Below, piece after piece: positions 1 to 35,782 of a stretch of DNA of 64,000 nt. The notes below the pieces were generated by a model. It saw only the letters and a list, made by a program, of their open reading frames with translations. It was not told the DNA's origin and searched no databases. Numbering within the stretch: position 1 is the stretch's first letter; every line of letters begins with the position of its first letter. The translations under genes were made by a program, and so were the position numbers. The stretch is from an uncultured delta proteobacterium (GTDB lineage: Bacteria > Myxococcota_A > Polyangia > Polyangiales > Polyangiaceae), in assembly GCA_963716725.1 (NCBI GenBank), contig CAVQUB010000015.1, forward strand, positions 512,001 through 576,000, read 5' to 3'.

Positions 1-144
1 CCGGCCTTCAGCTACGGCGAGACGCCGGACGGTCACTGGTGGAACGTGCTCTACGGGCTCGCGGGCTACACCCGCCGCGGCGACTTGGTGAAGATGCGGA
101 CGCTCTGGATCCCCATCACGCTGAGCGGCGAAGAGAAGGATTGA
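1..144 (+). CDS. 3' end of a hypothetical protein (partial)
   Basis: Frame 1 is open from the window edge (PAFSYGETPDGHWWNVLYGLAGYTRRGDLVKMRTLWIPITLSGEEKD*) to TGA at 142-144; third positions are GC-biased. Confidence 0.6.
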   Translation, partial: PAFSYGETPDGHWWNVLYGLAGYTRRGDLVKMRTLWIPITLSGEEKD

Positions 145-188
145 CGCTCGTCATCGCCGAGTTTCGCCGGCCGCGGCAGACTCGGCGC

Positions 189-896
189 ATGAAGAACCTG
201 TTCTTGGTGGCGGTACTGGGTCTTTCGTCGCTGACCGCGTGTGGCGACGACGACAATGGAGGCGGTTCGGGCGGCACCTCGAGCGGCGGTAGCGCCGGTT
301 CGGGCGGCACCTCGAGCGGCGGCGCTTCGACCGGCGGCAGCGGTGGCAACGCCGGATCGGGCGGCACCTCGAGCGGTGGCAACGCCGGATCGGGCGGCAC
401 CTCGAGCGGTGGCAACGCCGGGGCGGGCGGCACCTCGAGCGGTGGCAACGCCGGGGCGGGCGGCACCTCGAGCGGCGGTACTTCCAGTGGCGGTGCCGGC
501 GGCACCGGTGGTTCGAGCGCCTGCAATACGCTGGTCAATGACGGCGCCGACATCGTCGAAGAGGCCGCGACGGGAACCCCACCGGCCATGACCGGCGGCA
601 CCATCTCCGATGGCACCTACGTGCTCACGGCCCGCAAGGACTGGCAGGGTTCGTGTAACTGCACGTCGAGGCAGAAGCTCGCGATCAGCGGCGGAACCGT
701 GCAGATCGTCGCGCGCACCGACAAGGCCGCCGATCAGCACATGACGGCGACGGCAGCGGTGGCGGGCAATCAGCTCACGTTGAGCGGGACCTGCCCAGTC
801 GCGCAGAGCCTGAAGCAGACCTACACCGCGACCGCGACCCAGCTGTCGTTGTTCGACGCTTCCGACCAGTCGCTGAAGGTTTACACGAAGAAGTGA
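189..896 (+). CDS. Lipoprotein with Gly/Ser/Thr-rich repeat linker
   Basis: ATG 189, signal MKNLFLVAVLGLSSLTAC with lipobox Cys, GGTSSGGNAG repeats, then a Cys-containing C-terminal domain. Confidence 0.8.
   Translation: MKNLFLVAVLGLSSLTACGDDDNGGGSGGTSSGGSAGSGGTSSGGASTGGSGGNAGSGGTSSGGNAGSGGTSSGGNAGAGGTSSGGNAGAGGTSSGGTSSGGAGGTGGSSACNTLVNDGADIVEEAATGTPPAMTGGTISDGTYVLTARKDWQGSCNCTSRQKLAISGGTVQIVARTDKAADQHMTATAAVAGNQLTLSGTCPVAQSLKQTYTATATQLSLFDASDQSLKVYTKK
268..490 (+). repeat. 30-bp coding tandem repeat (GGTSSGGNAG[S/A])
   Basis: Repeated ggcggcacctcgagcggtggcaacgccgg units inside the lipoprotein gene. Confidence 0.85.
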
Positions 897-28511: not shown

Positions 28512-30188
28512 CTAGAGCGCGAGGGTGAGCGACGAGCCCACGGGCCTGATCGACGTGGCGCCCGCGGGCCAGGCTACGCCGTCGCGCATCAGCAGGAACT
28601 GGGTCTCGCTGTCGTGCCCGACGGAGGTCGCAAAGCTCTTGACGGTGCCGATCACCGAGCCTGAAGCGTCGAGGATCTCCACCGTGCGCTCGGCCGAGAG
28701 CACCGGCCAGGGTGAGTCGATGTCCGAGCCCCACTCCAGCGTGCCGTCGCCGCCCAAGATGGCCGTGCGGAACTTGCCCGGAGCGCGCATCGCGTCCTTG
28801 GAGACCATCAGCGCACCGGCGCCGTTCACGTACGAGATGCGCTTGAACATCTTGTTGAAGGTCCAGTCGGCGACCCAGTTCGGATCGCAGTAGGCCATGA
28901 TGTCCTTGTATTTAGCCGGATCGAGGAAGGTCTTGGTGAGGACGTTCCAGCCGGGAGTGCCGATGCTGGCGCCGGCGTAGGGATACGCCGGGTCGATGTT
29001 CTGAGGCATCGCTCCGCCCTGGCCGCAGGGCGCGTGCAGCAAGCCCAAGGTGTGCCCGACCTCGTGGTTCATCGTGTCCGGCGAGCCCGGGTTGCCATCG
29101 TTCGGGAAGTACCCGAGGCCCATGCCAGCTCGTCCCGTGGGGTCGTTGGCCTGTGGCGTGGTCGAGAGCCCCGCCACGCACGCGCCCTGACACCACCCCA
29201 TGAACGACTGCCCGGGCGTGATCAGCCCGTAGTAGTAGGTCTGCGCCGGTGGCTTGTCCGCGGAGCGGAGCTGCATCAACCAGCTGAGGGCCTGACTCCA
29301 GCCCGAGCCCGTGCGCTGCGGCACCGATCCCGGATAGGTCGCGGGCGCGCGCACTTCGACCTTGATCTCGCCGACGGGATACATCTTGAACAGCGCGTCG
29401 CGATAGATTTGGACCTCGGCCGGTCCGGACTTTGGAGTGATGCCAGCGGTGACCATCGGCACCAGCATGACGGTGAACGTGCCCGAGCTCTGCGCGCCCA
29501 GGTTGACCGCGCCGAACTTCGCCTTGTCGGTCGAACCCGTGAAATTTCCGCCGGCCGACGCCTCGAGCAAGCTCAGCGTGTAGGTCGAGCCAGCTTTGAT
29601 CGATCCGGGTGGGATCGAGACCTGGATGGTCGAGTTGGTGTCGGCCTCGTTGGAAGGCCCGCCGATGAAAGCCTTGCCATCGAAGCTCGCCGTGGTGCCG
29701 CCGGCGAGTTCGAGCCGGGCGACGATCTCGCGGCCTTGGTAACCGGCCTCGGGCGTGACGAACACGCGCACCACGCCCTCGCGATCCACGACCACCGGAG
29801 CGTTGCGCGGTGGTTCGCCCCAGTCCTTCATCAGCGGCAGCTTGACCCCTTGGTAAAGATCGATGCCGCTGATGGCGAGCCCCTTGGCCAAGCCGCCGGA
29901 GGGCAGCGTGCCGCCGGTGCCGCCGCTCGGTGCACCGCCGCCGCTCGGTGCGCCGCCGCTCGGTGCGCCGCCGCCGCCCGACGTGCCGCCCGTGTTCGAG
30001 ATGCCGCAGGCGGGAAAGCACTGCTGGATGTTCCCGGTGGCGCAGACGCAGAGGTCGTAGCAACCGGCGCAGGCGCTGCACGAGTTGTTCGAACAGTTCG
30101 GATCTGCCGCGCTTTGGTCGGACGAGCCGCACGAAAGGGCGAAGAGTCCAGCGGCGACGAGCAATGAAAGCGAAAGAATGCGCACCAT
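28512..30188 (-). CDS. Zinc metallopeptidase lipoprotein (metzincin, M66-like)
   Basis: ALSC lipobox; HEVGHTLGLLHAPC zinc motif; DIMAYC Met-turn. Confidence 0.8.
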   Translation of the reverse strand: MVRILSLSLLVAAGLFALSCGSSDQSAADPNCSNNSCSACAGCYDLCVCATGNIQQCFPACGISNTGGTSGGGGAPSGGAPSGGGAPSGGTGGTLPSGGLAKGLAISGIDLYQGVKLPLMKDWGEPPRNAPVVVDREGVVRVFVTPEAGYQGREIVARLELAGGTTASFDGKAFIGGPSNEADTNSTIQVSIPPGSIKAGSTYTLSLLEASAGGNFTGSTDKAKFGAVNLGAQSSGTFTVMLVPMVTAGITPKSGPAEVQIYRDALFKMYPVGEIKVEVRAPATYPGSVPQRTGSGWSQALSWLMQLRSADKPPAQTYYYGLITPGQSFMGWCQGACVAGLSTTPQANDPTGRAGMGLGYFPNDGNPGSPDTMNHEVGHTLGLLHAPCGQGGAMPQNIDPAYPYAGASIGTPGWNVLTKTFLDPAKYKDIMAYCDPNWVADWTFNKMFKRISYVNGAGALMVSKDAMRAPGKFRTAILGGDGTLEWGSDIDSPWPVLSAERTVEILDASGSVIGTVKSFATSVGHDSETQFLLMRDGVAWPAGATSIRPVGSSLTLAL

Positions 30189-30285
30189 TTTGGCTCCGGC
30201 TGCCGGCATTGGAGCATGTACCGGGCGCTTGGCCAGCGCCAAGTGCACGTGCGCCCATCACGCCCGCCGCCCAGCCTGGAATGTT

Positions 30286-31599: not shown

Positions 31600-32064
31600 G
31601 TGAAGCTGTCGAACAAGGGGCGATACGCCGTCCGGGCGCTGTTCGACATCGCATTCTACAACGACGGCCGGCCCACCCAGGTCAAGGACATCGCGGAGCG
31701 CGAGGGCATTCCTCCGCGCTTCCTGGAGCAGATCTTCCAGGATCTCAAGCGCGCCAACATCGTCGGCAGCAAGCGCGGGCCCCAGGGCGGGTACAGCCTG
31801 GCCCGGCGCGCGGTCGACATCAGAATCGGCGACGTGGTTCGGGCCATCGAGGGCCCCATCCTGCTCACCGAGCGAACTGAACCCGGCGCGCGACGCGGCA
31901 AGACCGGCGCCGACGGCCGCACCGTCACCGACGCCGCCTTTCGGGAGCTCTCCCTGCGCATCGAGGCATGCTTCGACGCCATGACCATCGCGGATCTCTG
32001 CGGTCGCGCGGAGGAACTCGGCATCCACCGGCCCCGGGGGCAACGCTACTCCTATGTCATCTGA
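31600..32064 (+). CDS. Rrf2 family regulator (CymR-like)
   Basis: KGRYAVRAL, FLEQIFQDLK, SKRGPQGGYSL; lacks the IscR Cys triad; first gene of the cysteine cluster; TTGACA at 31564. Confidence 0.88.
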   Translation: MKLSNKGRYAVRALFDIAFYNDGRPTQVKDIAEREGIPPRFLEQIFQDLKRANIVGSKRGPQGGYSLARRAVDIRIGDVVRAIEGPILLTERTEPGARRGKTGADGRTVTDAAFRELSLRIEACFDAMTIADLCGRAEELGIHRPRGQRYSYVI

Positions 32065-33019
32065 GCCGTTGCCCTCCCTGCCCGCGCATCCGTCGGTGTA
32101 CGGCGGTGTGCTCGAGCTGATCGGGGACACTCCGCTGGTCGAGATCCGCAAGCTCGGTCGCGACGCCCCTCGGGGCCGCGTGCTCGGCAAGATGGAACAC
32201 ATCAACCCGGGTGGCTCCGTGAAGGACCGAATCTGTCTCGCGATGATCGATCGCGCGGAGCGCGAGGGTCGCCTCGCCGCGGGCGGCACCGTGATCGAGC
32301 CCACGAGCGGCAACACCGGCATCGGGCTCGCGCTGGTGGCCCGCCAACGCGGCTACCGTTGCATCCTGACCATGCCGGAGAGCATGAGCCTCGAGCGTCG
32401 GCAGCTCCTTTCCGCGCTCGGCGCGGAGGTCGTGCTCACGCCCGAGGCCGAGCAGATGGACGGTGCCATCGCCAAGGCCCGACAACTCTGCTCCGAGATC
32501 CCGGGCGCCTTCCTGCCCCAACAGTTCGAGAACGAGGCCAACCCCGAAGCGCACTACGCCACGACCTTCCGCGAGATCGTGCACGCGCTCGGCAGCGAAG
32601 CGGTCCACGGCTTCGTGGCGGCGGTGGGCACCGGCGGGACCGTGAGCGGCGTCGGCCGGGCGCTGCGCGAACATTTCCCCGAGTGCCGGGTGATCGCGGT
32701 CGAGCCCGAGTCTTCGGCGACCCTCTCCCGGGGCGAGCGCGGCCCGAGCAAGATCCAGGGCATTGCGGCGGGATTCGTGCCAAAAAACTACGACCCTGCG
32801 GTGCCCCACGAGGTGCGCACCGTGACCGACGAACGGGCCCACCGGGCGAAGCGCGAGCTGGGCCGGCGAGAGGGCTTGCTGGTCGGGATCAGCGCCGGCG
32901 CAAACGTCGCTGTGGCTCTGGACCTCGCCCGGGAGCTCGGGCCTGGAACCAACGTGGTGACCGTGCTGTGCGACACCGGAGAACGCTACTTCAGCCTCGA
33001 TGAGTACTTTCAGGACTGA
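32054..33019 (+). CDS. cysK: Cysteine synthase A
   Basis: NPGGSVKDR, EPTSGNTG, QQFENEAN, GTGGT, KIQGI, DTGERYFS. Confidence 0.88.
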   Translation: MSSEPLPSLPAHPSVYGGVLELIGDTPLVEIRKLGRDAPRGRVLGKMEHINPGGSVKDRICLAMIDRAEREGRLAAGGTVIEPTSGNTGIGLALVARQRGYRCILTMPESMSLERRQLLSALGAEVVLTPEAEQMDGAIAKARQLCSEIPGAFLPQQFENEANPEAHYATTFREIVHALGSEAVHGFVAAVGTGGTVSGVGRALREHFPECRVIAVEPESSATLSRGERGPSKIQGIAAGFVPKNYDPAVPHEVRTVTDERAHRAKRELGRREGLLVGISAGANVAVALDLARELGPGTNVVTVLCDTGERYFSLDEYFQD

Positions 33020-33749
33020 CTCCAGCTTGCTCGCCGACAAGAGCGCGTTGATCGTCGGGGTCGGCGGCCTCGGTTGCCCGGCTGCGCTCGCGCTGGTGCG
33101 CGCGGGCGTGGGCCGCGTGGTGCTCGCCGACGACGACCTGGTCGAGGCAGCCAACTTGCACCGTCAGATCCTTTTCGACGAGCGGGACGTCGGACGCTCG
33201 AAGCTCGACGCCGCCCGCGAAACCCTGCTCGGGCGGGGCGCGACGGATCGCGGCGTCGAACTCTACCGCGGGCGCCTGCTGCCGGACACCGCTCGCGAGC
33301 TCGTGCGCTCCGTCGACGTGGTGGTGGAAGGCTCGGACAATTTCGCGACCAAGTTCCTGGCGGCCGACGCCAGCTTCCTGGAACGCCGCGCGGTGGTGCA
33401 CGGAGCGGCCATCCGCTGGCAGGGCACGGCGTGGTTGGTCCCTCCCGGTGGGGCGCCCTGTTACCGCTGTCTGTTCGAAGACGTGCCCGCCGGGGCGCAG
33501 CTTGGTTGCTCCGAGGCCGGCGTGATGGGCCCCGTCGTGGGCTTCGTCGGGGCGCTGATGGCGGATCTGGCGCTGCGCTTCCTGGTGGGCGACGAGAGCG
33601 CCGCCGGCAGCATCACCAGCTACGACGGCAAACGCGACCGCCTGCGCGCCACTTCCGTCCCCGCGCGGCCGGATTGTCCCTTGTGTGGACAGCGACTGAT
33701 CGCGGATTTGATCGAAACCCGCTACGTATCTGGGCTCTGTACCGATTGA
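33000..33749 (+). CDS. ThiF/MoeB family adenylyltransferase, without N-terminal arm or rhodanese domain
   Basis: GVGGLG, NLHRQ, DNF, CYRC...CPLC zinc motifs, CSEAGV. Confidence 0.88.
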   Translation: MSTFRTDSSLLADKSALIVGVGGLGCPAALALVRAGVGRVVLADDDLVEAANLHRQILFDERDVGRSKLDAARETLLGRGATDRGVELYRGRLLPDTARELVRSVDVVVEGSDNFATKFLAADASFLERRAVVHGAAIRWQGTAWLVPPGGAPCYRCLFEDVPAGAQLGCSEAGVMGPVVGFVGALMADLALRFLVGDESAAGSITSYDGKRDRLRATSVPARPDCPLCGQRLIADLIETRYVSGLCTD

Positions 33750-33761
33750 GAGGAGAACACC

Positions 33762-34034
33762 ATGGAGGTCACGGTTCGCATTCCCACCCCCTTGCGCACG
33801 CTGACGAGCGGCGAGGACGCAGTCAAGATCGCCGGAACGACGGTGCGCGAGATCGTCGATGGTCTCGAGAAGGCGCATCCGGGCATGAAGGACCGCCTCC
33901 TCGACGACAAGGGCGTTCGCCGCTTCGTGAACATCTACGTCGGTGAAGAGGACATTCGGTTCTTGGACGGCTTGGACACGGCGTTGACGGACGGCCAGGA
34001 GCTCAGCATCGTGCCAGCCATCGCCGGCGGCTGA
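33762..34034 (+). CDS. Ubiquitin-like sulfur carrier (CysO/MoaD type)
   Basis: VRIPTPLR, RRFVNIYV, C-terminal PAIAGG; GAGGAG RBS. Confidence 0.9.
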   Translation: MEVTVRIPTPLRTLTSGEDAVKIAGTTVREIVDGLEKAHPGMKDRLLDDKGVRRFVNIYVGEEDIRFLDGLDTALTDGQELSIVPAIAGG

Positions 34035-34038
34035 GGTC

Positions 34039-34329
34039 ATGCCCGAACGCACCCTCGACCGACAGACGCGCTTGCCCGAGATCGGCCCAGCCGGTCAGGC
34101 GAGGATCCGCGACGCCGAGGTCGAGGTGCGGGGCTCCGACGGCGCCATTGTCGAGGCCGAGTACCTGCATCGAGCGGGCGTCGTCCGTCTCACCCTCACT
34201 CCGGGGAGGGACCCCGAGCCCTTCCGCCACGAGTCCGCGTTTCGCTTCGCAGCGTCCCGCCGGGTGGCGGCTGGCGCTTGGCGCGCGCTGACCAAGGTCC
34301 GGCGTGCGCTCGAGCTGGAGCCCCGATGA
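34039..34329 (+). CDS. Small ThiF/MoeB N-terminal-like protein
   Basis: LDRQTRLPEIGPAGQARI and YLHRAGV match the MoeB N-terminal arm; no GxGxxG; stop overlaps the cysM start. Confidence 0.7.
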   Translation: MPERTLDRQTRLPEIGPAGQARIRDAEVEVRGSDGAIVEAEYLHRAGVVRLTLTPGRDPEPFRHESAFRFAASRRVAAGAWRALTKVRRALELEPR

Positions 34330-35276
34330 CGGCGACGCTGAGGCGCGCACGGCTCTTGCCGAGCGTGATCGGGGCCGTTGGGGGCACCCCGCTGGTCCGA
34401 CTACGACGCGTCGCCGAAGCCGCGCCGAGCGTCGAGGTCTACGTCAAGCTCGAATACATGAACCCAGGCGGCTCGGTGAAGGACCGCCCCGCCCTGCGCA
34501 TCGTCACCGACGCCATCGCCGATGGTCGATTGACTCCCGACAAGATCCTAATCGACGCCACCAGCGGCAACACCGGCGTGGCCTACAGCATGGTGGGCGC
34601 CGCCATGGATTTCCGAGTGCAGCTGGTGATGCCCGGCAACGTCAGCAAGGCGCGCAAGGACATCACTCAGGCCTACGGTGCGGAGCTGATCTTCTCCAGC
34701 CCCCTCGAGGGATCCGACGGCGCGATCCAGCACGTGCGGCGCCTGGTGGCAGAGGCTCCGGAGAAGTACTTCTACGCCGACCAGTACGCGAACCCGTCGA
34801 ACCCGCTCGCTCACTATCACGGCACGGGGCCGGAAATTCTGGACGCCCTCGGCGATCGCATCACGCACTTCGTGACGGGGCTCGGCACCACCGGAACCAT
34901 GATGGGCACCACGCGGCGCCTGCACGAAAACGCGCGCGCGATCCGTTGCGTTGCCGTCGAGCCCAGCGAAGCGTTGCACGGGCTCGAGGGCATGAAGCAC
35001 CTGGCCTCCAGCCTCGTGCCGGAGATCTACGACGCGAGCGTGCCCGACGAGATCATGCCCGTGTCGACGGATGAAGGTTGGGACATGGCGGACCGCGTGG
35101 CCGAGCAAGAGGGGCTCTTCGTCGGTCACTCCTCCGGCGCCAACATTTTCGCTGCCCTGAGGGTCGCCGAGCGGCTGCACGCCGAGGGTCGCGGCGGCGC
35201 GGTCGTGACCGTGGCCTGCGACCGAGGCGATCGCTACTTCGCGCCGCTGCGCTGGGAGAGGAAATACGCTTGGTGA
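34326..35276 (+). CDS. cysM: PLP-dependent cysteine synthase, CysM type
   Basis: NPGGSVKDRPA, ATSGNTG, DQYANPSN, GTTGT, CDRGDRY; next to the carrier and JAMM genes. Confidence 0.8.
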   Translation: MTATLRRARLLPSVIGAVGGTPLVRLRRVAEAAPSVEVYVKLEYMNPGGSVKDRPALRIVTDAIADGRLTPDKILIDATSGNTGVAYSMVGAAMDFRVQLVMPGNVSKARKDITQAYGAELIFSSPLEGSDGAIQHVRRLVAEAPEKYFYADQYANPSNPLAHYHGTGPEILDALGDRITHFVTGLGTTGTMMGTTRRLHENARAIRCVAVEPSEALHGLEGMKHLASSLVPEIYDASVPDEIMPVSTDEGWDMADRVAEQEGLFVGHSSGANIFAALRVAERLHAEGRGGAVVTVACDRGDRYFAPLRWERKYAW

Positions 35277-35782
35277 GCGCGCCCTGGGTCGCCGGAGGTC
35301 TTTGCATCCCGAAGGCCGTGATCGCCGAGGTCGAGCGGGCGGCCCAGGCCGCCTACGCTCGTGACGAAGAGGCCTGCGGCTATCTCGAAGGTCCGCTCAC
35401 GGAGCCCCTGGCCGTCGACCGCGCCGTGGAGCTCGAGAACCTCGCCAACAAGTACCACGCCGTCGATCCCGAGGGTCACCCGCGCAGGGGCCGGGAGTAC
35501 TTCAAGATCAATTCGTTGAAGTTCGAGAAGGCGATCTCCGAAGCCCATGCAGCGGCGCGCGCCGTCAAAGTCTTCTTCCACTCCCATCTGGATTGCGGCG
35601 CCTATTTCAGCGCCGAAGACGCGGCCAGCATGACCATGGGCGGCAGTGGCGCGCCGCCGCATCCGCTCGCCTACTTGGTCACCGCGGTGGACCGCGGAGT
35701 GGTGACCGCACACCGACTCTTCGTGTGGAGCGCCTCGGAAGCCGGCTTCGTGCAAGCGCCCTTCACCGTCGAAGGAGACTGA
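35273..35782 (+). CDS. JAB/MPN (JAMM) metallopeptidase, Mec+-like
   Basis: EEACG...FFHSHLDCGAYFSAED fits E...HxH...S..D; GTG overlaps the cysM stop. Confidence 0.85.
   Translation: MSAPWVAGGLCIPKAVIAEVERAAQAAYARDEEACGYLEGPLTEPLAVDRAVELENLANKYHAVDPEGHPRRGREYFKINSLKFEKAISEAHAAARAVKVFFHSHLDCGAYFSAEDAASMTMGGSGAPPHPLAYLVTAVDRGVVTAHRLFVWSASEAGFVQAPFTVEGD

Follow-up and report, generated by a model that had tools for sequence, protein, structure and literature searches.

A candidate heterodimeric E1-like enzyme with a miniature inactive subunit in a CysO-type cysteine operon of the Polyangiaceae

The operon and its two E1-related genes

The DNA analyzed here, referred to as the window, is a stretch of 64,000 nucleotides (nt) from an uncultured member of the Polyangiaceae (Myxococcota; GenBank assembly GCA_963716725.1, contig CAVQUB010000015.1, positions 512,001 to 576,000 of the forward strand), and positions are counted from its first letter. 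It contains a tightly packed plus-strand operon, from about 31600 to 35782, in the order Rrf2-cysK-thiF-cysO-small-cysM-mec, in which the genes abut or overlap (Table 1). Two of these genes are the main subject of this report: thiF, which encodes an E1-like adenylyltransferase of the ThiF/MoeB type that lacks the N-terminal arm of that family, and an open reading frame (ORF) of 96 amino acids (aa), hereafter the small ORF, which lies two genes downstream and carries such an arm. The gene for a sulfur carrier, cysO, stands between them. Based on sequence comparison and structure prediction, the two products probably form a heterodimeric bacterial E1, with the small protein as a miniature inactive subunit, within a CysO-dependent cysteine operon.

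Judged by its sequence, the catalytic ORF belongs to the ThiF/MoeB family and departs from it in lacking the arm. Residues 11 to 227 of the 249-aa protein match positions 18 to 237 of the 238 in the Pfam ThiF profile, at 182.4 bits against a gathering cutoff of 28.1, and the first 17 profile positions, which represent the arm, are missing. The protein has NLHRQ at residues 52 to 56, K68, D113, CxxC pairs at 154/157 and 226/229, and a cysteine in the crossover loop, C170. R55 (in NLHRQ), K68, D113, C154/C157, and C226/C229 are invariant in 16 sequences (alignment A2), and the equation of R55, K68, and D113 with MoeB R73, K86, and D130 rests on motif position. The N-terminal arm that supplies a trans arginine finger in this family (RYxRQ...G..GQ) is absent from the operon ThiF. 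No second Pfam domain was found in it, neither a rhodanese domain nor the Cys and ubiquitin-fold (UFD) domains used for transfer to an E2, and the protein appears to work like a MoeB-type enzyme rather than a conjugating E1.

The original prediction held that ThiF starts 19 residues before GVGGLG without an arm and that cysK occupies the space upstream, and both points are borne out. GVGGLG falls at residues 20 to 25, the start at 33000 is the first after the upstream in-frame stop, and there is neither an earlier start codon nor an arm motif upstream in the thiF frame, while cysK, which overlaps thiF by 20 nt, fills the space where an arm would be encoded. An upstream start or a frameshift that would give ThiF an arm was rejected, as no motif is present in any frame and no insertions or deletions (indels) occur in independent contigs: two independently assembled metagenome contigs, from two studies, cover positions 32800 to 34500 with 14 substitutions and 0 indels. 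The division between thiF and the small ORF is thus not an assembly artifact. None of the 14 substitutions falls inside the small ORF.

The small ORF starts with MPERTLDRQTRLPEIGPAGQARI, followed further on by YLHRAGV. Its arm is laid out as D7-R8-Q9...L12-P-E14-I-G16..G19-Q20 and is followed by a degenerate beta1-alpha1-beta2 unit and a C-terminal helix at residues 71 to 90 (GAWRAL). RGSDGA stands where GxGxxG would sit, and the protein has no NLHRQ, no Asp motif, and no cysteine. The original description, of an ORF two genes on that carries an arm and YLHRAGV without GxGxxG, NLHRQ, or zinc cysteines, was therefore accurate, as was the statement that the carrier encoded between the two ORFs ends in AGG. 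A scan of all six frames of the 64-kb window finds R[QH]..L..[IVFL]G..G[QH], the motif of the arm, a single time, in the small ORF. The anatomy of the two proteins is complementary, with ThiF covering positions 18 to 237 of the Pfam profile and the small ORF positions 2 to 49, the latter at an E value of 0.0074, which is below the gathering score (best NCBIfam ThiF match, E 2.1e-4).

The other genes complete a recognizable pathway cluster, in which a carrier of the ThiS/MoaD fold ending in Gly-Gly adjoins a CysM-type pyridoxal phosphate enzyme and a JAMM peptidase. The end of the Rrf2 gene overlaps the start of cysK, and cysK is the upstream neighbor of thiF in most related loci. A GAGGAG resembling a ribosome-binding site precedes cysO. 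Translational coupling is tight from there on: the cysO stop lies 4 nt before the ATG of the small ORF, the TGA of the small ORF overlaps the cysM ATG (ATGA), and the cysM TGA is overlapped by the mec GTG. A search for RNA sequencing runs containing the operon listed none.

Table 1. Genes of the plus-strand operon, with positions in the window.
Feature	Position	Strand	Profile evidence
Rrf2-family transcription regulator, operon head	31600..32064 (start approximate)	+	PF02082, E 2.1e-34, 118.9 bits
cysK-type cysteine synthase	32054..33019	+	PF00291 PALP, E 4.7e-77
Arm-less ThiF/MoeB-type E1-like adenylyltransferase, 249 aa	33000..33749	+	PF00899, 182.4 bits, profile 18-237 of 238
CysO/ThiS-MoaD-type sulfur carrier, 90 aa, end AIAGG	33762..34034	+	PF02597 ThiS, E 7e-13; NCBIfam SAMP1, E 2.7e-14
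Small ORF, 96 aa, candidate miniature inactive E1 subunit	34039..34329	+	Pfam ThiF positions 2-49
cysM-type cysteine synthase	34326..35276	+	PF00291, E 6.2e-64; TIGR01138, 335.6 bits (below cutoff 394.2)
Mec-like JAMM/JAB metalloprotease	35273..35782 (start GTG 35273 or TTG 35270)	+	PF14464 Prok-JAB, 36.2 bits (cutoff 25)

Two further observations concern the same genome. The housekeeping MoeB paralog, a 389-aa rhodanese-MoeB with a full arm, RYSRH...LPEVG..GQ, is encoded on contig C2 (L021:1435-2604, minus strand). Its rhodanese domain is N-terminal, whereas that of UBA4 is C-terminal, and the rhodanese domain of MoeZR is C-terminal as well. Within the window, at 28512 to 30248 on the minus strand, an unrelated 578-aa ORF has a lipoprotein-like N-terminus, a Gly/Ser/Pro-rich linker, and the zinc-metalloprotease motif HEVGHxxGxxH.

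Conservation, co-occurrence, and selection

A search with the single small sequence found the ORF in 20 of 41 related genomes, and the protein database holds 28 free-standing homologs of about 95 aa that are called 'hypothetical' wherever they are named; a search of genome contigs with the single small protein returned no relative. Pfam ThiF matches were present in 40 of the 41 genomes and fall into two main classes, full-length proteins (profile 1-238, in frames of about 400 aa) and arm-less ones (profile from 12-25). For the co-occurrence count, 11 arm-less loci missed by the single sequence were added, and all loci were rescanned with hidden Markov models (HMMs) built from alignments. All 29 loci of the operon-type arm-less class then gave a match to the small-ORF HMM, with E values from 3e-43 to 3e-7; the match immediately follows cysO in 28 of them and, in L023, comes after ThiF within one reading frame. 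The usual order is that of the window from cysK onward, cysK-thiF-cysO-small-cysM-mec. An arm motif upstream of GxGGxG was found in none of the 27 arm-less ThiF frames with a complete N-terminus (2 more are cut by contig ends), and in the control, the full-length MoeB of L014, it lies 24 residues upstream. Some candidates from these scans were set aside. The frames of 340 to 570 aa at L034, L035, L036, and L039, considered as fusions, turned out to be conventional members of the ThiF family, full-length and with the arm in cis; the apparent small ORF of L014 is the N-terminus of its full-length MoeB; and L020, considered as a paired locus, has no ThiF nearby.

Across a phylum-wide sample of 251 genomes, full-length small-ORF matches concentrate in a single order, in two of its families (17 of 18 genomes in one and 17 of 17 in the other), and matches elsewhere are mostly MoeB N-termini. 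A profile search of 1.84 billion representatives gave 3449 matches at E ≤ 0.001, of which 356 reach E ≤ 1e-10; almost all of the top 150 are between 80 and 150 aa long, and they cover the whole profile. The clusters of this family are labeled 'hypothetical protein' and come most often from Myxococcota, with one named member from a metagenome-assembled genome of the Polyangiaceae. Conservation was counted over the 146 clusters at 50% identity, a lower bound, that are represented among the best 150 matches. The arm is retained at R8 (137/140), Q9 (138/140), L12 (138/143), E14 (134/143), G16 (143/146), G19 (145/146), and Q20 (141/146), the YLxRAG segment at Y42 and G47 (each 146/146), and the C-terminal GAWxAL helix at A83 (144/144).

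The ratio of nonsynonymous to synonymous substitution rates (dN/dS) of the small ORF is 0.23 to 0.41 among pairs of the loci L001-L004, with each of four segments at 0.27 to 0.43, and it is 0.18 for the pair L007-L008, although dS is saturated there. By these values, the gene does not evolve neutrally, but its constraint is weaker than that of thiF. The small ORF is a genuine gene under purifying selection, and an artifact of high GC content is ruled out by its conservation, its dN/dS, and its fold. Two expectations tied to the original prediction, that the small ORF would be conserved rather than drifting and that arm-less ThiF would occur together with it, hold in the related genomes.

Other loci of the same genus depart from this pattern. 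In L006 (G006:C23:256316-259531), thiF, cysO-small, cysM, and mec are each in two or three frame-shifted pieces, which reflects either a decaying operon or a poor assembly (completeness, 73%). Four genomes of the genus carry a ThiF-like protein of about 190 aa (L040-L043 in G002, G003, G005, and G004, respectively) that begins at beta1 (MRIVFCGVGALGS) and has NLASQ rather than NLHRQ, and no cys genes lie within about 3 kb of it.

Fold, natural fusions, and the predicted complex

AlphaFold2 (AF2) folds the isolated small protein with a predicted local distance difference test (pLDDT) score of 90 and a predicted template modeling (pTM) score of 0.79, the arm being weak (pLDDT 52 over the first ten residues). 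The model consists of a helix at 16-25, a strand at 27-31, a helix at 36-46, a strand at 50-54, and a long helix at 71-90. VIA-align places 93 of its 96 residues, at a root mean square deviation (rmsd) of about 3.2 Å, on Uba4 (Z 7.4, chain 9..233), MoeB (Z 6.5, 5..218), and ThiF (Z 6.5, 2..215); among the inactive subunits of eukaryotic E1s, it aligns the model with APPBP1 (Z 6.2) and SAE1 (Z 5.9) over 91 to 93 residues. Foldseek with the same model returned no match at E ≤ 0.001; its top matches are weak and all E1-like. At the level of sequence profiles, the family profile (A1) matches Uba4 (residues 11-82, E 1.4e-7), ThiF (7-60, E 9.4e-6), and MoeB (E 0.0097) among Protein Data Bank entries, and the profile of a longer subfamily (A7) matches the same three at 3e-10, 2.2e-9, and 2e-4. 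The kinship with MoeB/ThiF and with the eukaryotic E1s on which the original prediction relied is therefore supported by both the profile matches and the alignment of the model to SAE1 and APPBP1.

Taken together, sequence and model describe the small protein as a skeletonized adenylation domain, in which the arm, the first beta-alpha-beta unit, and one late helix are kept and the middle is deleted. The degenerate beta-alpha-beta unit would no longer be able to bind nucleotide. The operon thus encodes a second protein that is homologous to an adenylation domain and lacks its nucleotide-binding and catalytic motifs, as in heterodimeric E1s. Longer members of the family (112 to 148 aa) retain additional ThiF-like pieces. 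Small proteins of about 125 aa with a 'LADLNPDV' segment and an 'AGAMAALSAL' helix are encoded at L037 and L038 (G163 and G135, from other families of the phylum), in operons of the order thiF-cysO-small-mec without cysM; by their sequence, they look like less reduced intermediates.

In another lineage, the two proteins occur naturally joined. Three clusters of 355 to 365 aa consist of an arm-less ThiF, a linker, and a small module, one of them with 7 members from NCBI, Logan, ENA, and JGI assemblies, and the ThiF-small arrangement of L023, at a contig end, is alike. Among longer database proteins, there was no fused homolog of the window's own small protein. One fusion, P0048, was folded by AF2 using a block alignment (A6), which gave a pLDDT of 88.6 and a pTM of 0.89, with the arm at pLDDT 84-92, compared with 52-83 in the free protein. 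VIA-align matches this model to ThiF/MoeB over 222 to 227 residues (Z 25.8-25.9) and to the single-chain Uba1, UBA6, and UBA7 over about 283 to 303 residues (model 7..365, Z 22-24.5, rmsd 3.0-3.5), indicating that the small module is placed like the second adenylation domain of canonical E1s.

The fusions also have features of their own. P0048, P0178, and P0179 (alignment A4) read ...PDPAAAGV... and have no crossover-loop Cys, which is invariant in the 16 split-type ThiFs (C170 here), and the arm of two of the three ThiF-small fusions has RH instead of RQ. Two other joined frames involve different partners. At L010:952-1776 (minus strand, G013), the small ORF reads through into the mec/JAB frame, for a total of 275 aa with no cysM between, which a small-JAB fusion, loss of a stop codon, or misassembly could each explain; if real, the joined frame would be a second Rosetta-stone link of the mini-subunit to the pathway. 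P0110, a 211-aa database protein, is a CysO-small fusion in which ...AIAGG runs directly into an arm-bearing small module. Its cluster has a single member, on 2 contigs, and it may be a read-through error; the arrangement would, from its sequence, bury the Gly-Gly end of the carrier until the JAMM peptidase cuts.

The complex was folded as ThiF, the small protein, and ATP at 1:1, in three runs and with three controls. The interaction prediction score from aligned errors (ipSAE) was 0.92 in 3 of 3 runs, compared with 0.25 for the best control; in calibration, 58 of 80 solved complexes attain the mark for this score, as do 2 of 110 mismatched pairs. Contact agreement was ≥96% and partner pLDDT ≥88. 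On the small protein, the predicted interface consists of residues 2, 4-9, 11-12, 14, 38, 41-42, 45-47, 63-64, 67-77, 80-81, 83-85, 87-88, 93, and 95, and on ThiF of residues 7, 27, 30-32, 34-36, 50-55, 57, 61, 139-140, 171-179, 181-193 (part), 198, 206, 210-213, and 215. The small C-terminal helix is predicted to pack on the ThiF post-crossover helix and alpha1, and the arm to share the interface with the phosphate-binding loop of the ATP site, A50-A-N-L-H-R55. In this prediction, the strongest contacts come from helix-helix packing, ThiF 178-192 with small 68-84, rather than from the arm. In the model, the docking surface on ThiF is the homodimer interface of the superfamily, as judged from the description of TcdA and the conserved helices of MoeB and ThiF. 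Nineteen of the 30 family-conserved positions of the small protein are among its 38 predicted interface residues (hypergeometric p 0.0015). The modeling suggested at the outset, in which the DRQ arm was expected at the ATP site of the partner, thus yields a predicted pair with the arm inside the interface. The proposal of an active/inactive E1 pair as a whole gains support from co-occurrence, homology, fusions, and this predicted complex.

Proposed mechanism, alternatives, and significance

The reading that we favor is that the operon would provide a CysO-dependent cysteine pathway, with CysO, CysM, and Mec plus a conventional CysK, whose E1 is split into two polypeptides. The 249-aa ThiF would supply the whole catalytic adenylation domain, and the 96-aa protein would supply the arm with its Arg-Gln and the C-terminal helix. 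This helix, together with alpha1 of the mini-subunit, would dock on the ThiF homodimerization surface (helix 178-193 and alpha1 27-36) and give a 1:1 pseudo-dimer with one active site, like SAE1-UBA2 or APPBP1-UBA3, in which the arm (R4-Q9, L12, E14) is laid over the ThiF NLHRQ loop (50-55) at the ATP phosphate site and the active site is completed in trans. The complex would then adenylate the C-terminal glycine of CysO (Gly90), sulfur would be added to yield the CysO-thiocarboxylate, CysM would form a CysO-Cys adduct, and Mec would release cysteine. Binding, stoichiometry, and the contribution of Arg8 to catalysis are inferred from the models, and the pathway chemistry is proposed by analogy with the mycobacterial CysO/CysM/Mec/MoeZR system.

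The putative pair resembles several known systems, each in part. With E. coli MoeB and ThiF (1JW9/1JWA, 1ZUD/1ZFN), it shares the adenylation fold, the ATP-site residues, the zinc CxxC pairs, and a ThiS/MoaD-type carrier ending in GG. Those enzymes are symmetric homodimers with two active sites and an arm in each catalytic chain, whereas here the arm is on a separate 96-aa polypeptide unable to bind ATP, and the predicted assembly is asymmetric, 1:1, with one active site. Like SAE1(Aos1)-UBA2 and APPBP1-UBA3, the predicted pair consists of an active adenylation-type subunit and an inactive one that bears the N-terminal Arg motif, and the fusion model mimics the pseudo-dimer of inactive and active adenylation domains (IAD-AAD) of Uba1. 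In contrast to the 96 residues here, the inactive subunits of eukaryotes have the size of complete domains (about 310-530 residues in the aligned chains), and their active partners possess the Cys and UFD domains used in E2 transfer, which are lacking here. The product here is presumably a thiocarboxylate, and an independent origin within Myxococcota is proposed. From sequence and models, the pair appears to work like the eukaryotic heterodimeric E1s and not to be a member of that group.

Closer parallels exist for the pathway and for the use of two different chains. A ThiS/MoaD-like carrier, a cysteine synthase, and a JAB/JAMM peptidase occur together in mycobacterial CysO-CysM-Mec (PMC3227635, as excerpted), and the same three are grouped in operon types 4c/4d of Iyer et al. 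2006 (PMC1779556, as excerpted). The E1 of the mycobacterial system, MoeZR, is a single full-length protein fused to a rhodanese domain; here, there is instead an arm-less, rhodanese-less ThiF with a mini-subunit, as well as an extra cysK and an Rrf2 regulator. Yeast Tcd1-Tcd2 likewise consists of two different ThiF-like chains, with the Arg59 finger of Tcd1 donated to the active site of the partner, but both Tcd chains are full-size and the substrate is the t6A of transfer RNA (PMC13139853, available portion). The literature search, which covered freely accessible papers and yielded both review articles and primary studies of E1 architecture, turned up no account of a split or heterodimeric sulfur-carrier E1 or of the small protein family.

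Several points weigh against a catalytic pair or against the strength of its support. In the available portion of PMC13139853, ThiF Arg11 and MoeB Arg14 of E. coli are described as belonging to N-terminal arms that act in trans at the partner ATP site, and yet these fingers are not catalytically essential; the finger of Tcd1 is also non-essential, with R59A lowering the product ratio by 26%, and TcdA has no arginine finger. UBA3 alone activates NEDD8, with APPBP1 only accelerating the reaction, whereas the SUMO E1 needs both subunits (PMC6031683, as excerpted). Given the reports that the MoeB/ThiF finger is non-essential and that APPBP1 only accelerates, the main role of the small subunit may be structural, at the dimer interface or as an active-site lid, or kinetic, rather than the supply of an essential Arg. 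Proline replaces arginine at the Arg8 column in 3 of 140 representatives and in L009. The class of arm-less ThiF-like proteins of about 190 aa from the same genus has a small-ORF match within about 3 kb in 0 of 4 loci, which shows that loss of the arm alone does not demand a partner. thiF has a lower dN/dS (0.12-0.22) in the same L001-L004 pairs, and that of the small ORF rises to 0.43-0.70 against L007 and L008. With Z scores of 6-7.4, the VIA-align matches of the small model fall short of 8, the level under which the tool advises caution, and they are meaningful only with sequence evidence. An hhalign comparison of the small family (A1) with the partner ThiF family (A2) detects just beta1-alpha1, at a probability of 1.6%, and the MAFFT pairing of the small PFxHxxxFRF and GAWRAL segments with PVVHGAAIRW and GALMADLAL of ThiF is therefore suggestive only. 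On the ThiF side, the predicted interface shows no significant enrichment for conserved residues (11 shared, p 0.12). The complex score may stem from model memory of solved E1 dimers (MoeB, ThiF, SAE1-UBA2), so that what it establishes is a resemblance of the pair to an E1 dimer rather than binding, and the use of our own alignments and of a riding ATP departs from the calibration of the complex tool.

Some of these points would also suit a different role, in which the small protein binds the ThiF dimer interface to regulate the enzyme or to aid its assembly, without complementing its catalysis, and the arm is a structural leftover. Such a protein might set the oligomeric state of ThiF, keep ThiF inactive, or pass CysO to CysM/Mec. 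It would fit the reported non-essentiality of the arginine finger in MoeB/ThiF (PMC13139853, excerpt), the merely accelerating effect of APPBP1 on UBA3 (PMC6031683, excerpt), the predominance of helix-helix contacts (ThiF 178-192, small 68-84) over those of the arm, and the in-frame small-JAB of L010 and the CysO-small fusion P0110. We nonetheless regard this role as unlikely: the arm motif is the best-conserved part of the family (R8 137/140, Q9 138/140, G19 145/146), it is exactly the arm that the partner ThiF has lost in 27/27 frames with a complete N-terminus, and the confident interface includes arm residues 4-9, 11-12, and 14 as well as the NLHRQ loop.

It is less probable still that the arm-less ThiF heterodimerizes with the full-length rhodanese-MoeB paralog, which would bring both arm and sulfur, and that the role of the small protein is unrelated. 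The 389-aa paralog of the same genome does have an RYSRH...LPEVG..GQ arm, the operon ThiF has no rhodanese domain, and full-length (1-238) ThiF matches are present in most of the 40 of 41 genomes with a PF00899 match, but such a pairing leaves unexplained the synteny and co-occurrence of the small ORF (29/29), the ThiF-small fusions, and the prediction that the small protein fills the dimer interface. Least credible of all is a decaying, functionless remnant of a duplicated thiF, as the fragment-like, degenerate sequence with its lost P-loop and deleted domain middle, and its dN/dS above that of thiF, might suggest, because the frame is intact at 90-150 aa over at least 146 clusters (50% identity) down to about 35% identity, dN/dS is <0.45 in close pairs and in all four segments, the isolated protein has a confident AF2 fold, and two strain contigs show 0 substitutions within the small ORF compared with 14 elsewhere in 1.7 kb.

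The bacterial sulfur-carrier E1s MoeB, ThiF, and MoeZR are symmetric homodimers, and asymmetric active/inactive E1 pairs are viewed as a eukaryotic elaboration or as a single-chain feature of some defense E1s. The split E1 proposed here leads us to lean, with reservations, toward an independent evolution of a heterodimeric E1 in Myxococcota, in which one copy of a duplicated ThiF was reduced to a pseudo-subunit of 96 residues, with nothing left but the arginine-finger arm and the dimer-interface helices, and the arm disappeared from the catalytic copy. If true, the small protein would be the smallest inactive adenylation subunit known and would define, as a natural minimum, what an E1 requires of its inactive half, namely an arm and interface helices. 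It would offer a bacterial parallel to the step behind the Aos1-Uba2, APPBP1-UBA3, and Uba1 IAD-AAD architectures, with the members of 112-148 aa and the C-terminally fused (permuted) form as intermediates or variants of the same reduction process, and it would mean that E1 asymmetry can arise by subfunctionalization in a plain metabolic E1. The pair is also a small, tractable system for defining what the N-terminal arm and the arginine finger contribute, given the reports that the finger is non-essential, and it would give a name and a role to a family of >146 clusters labeled 'hypothetical protein'.

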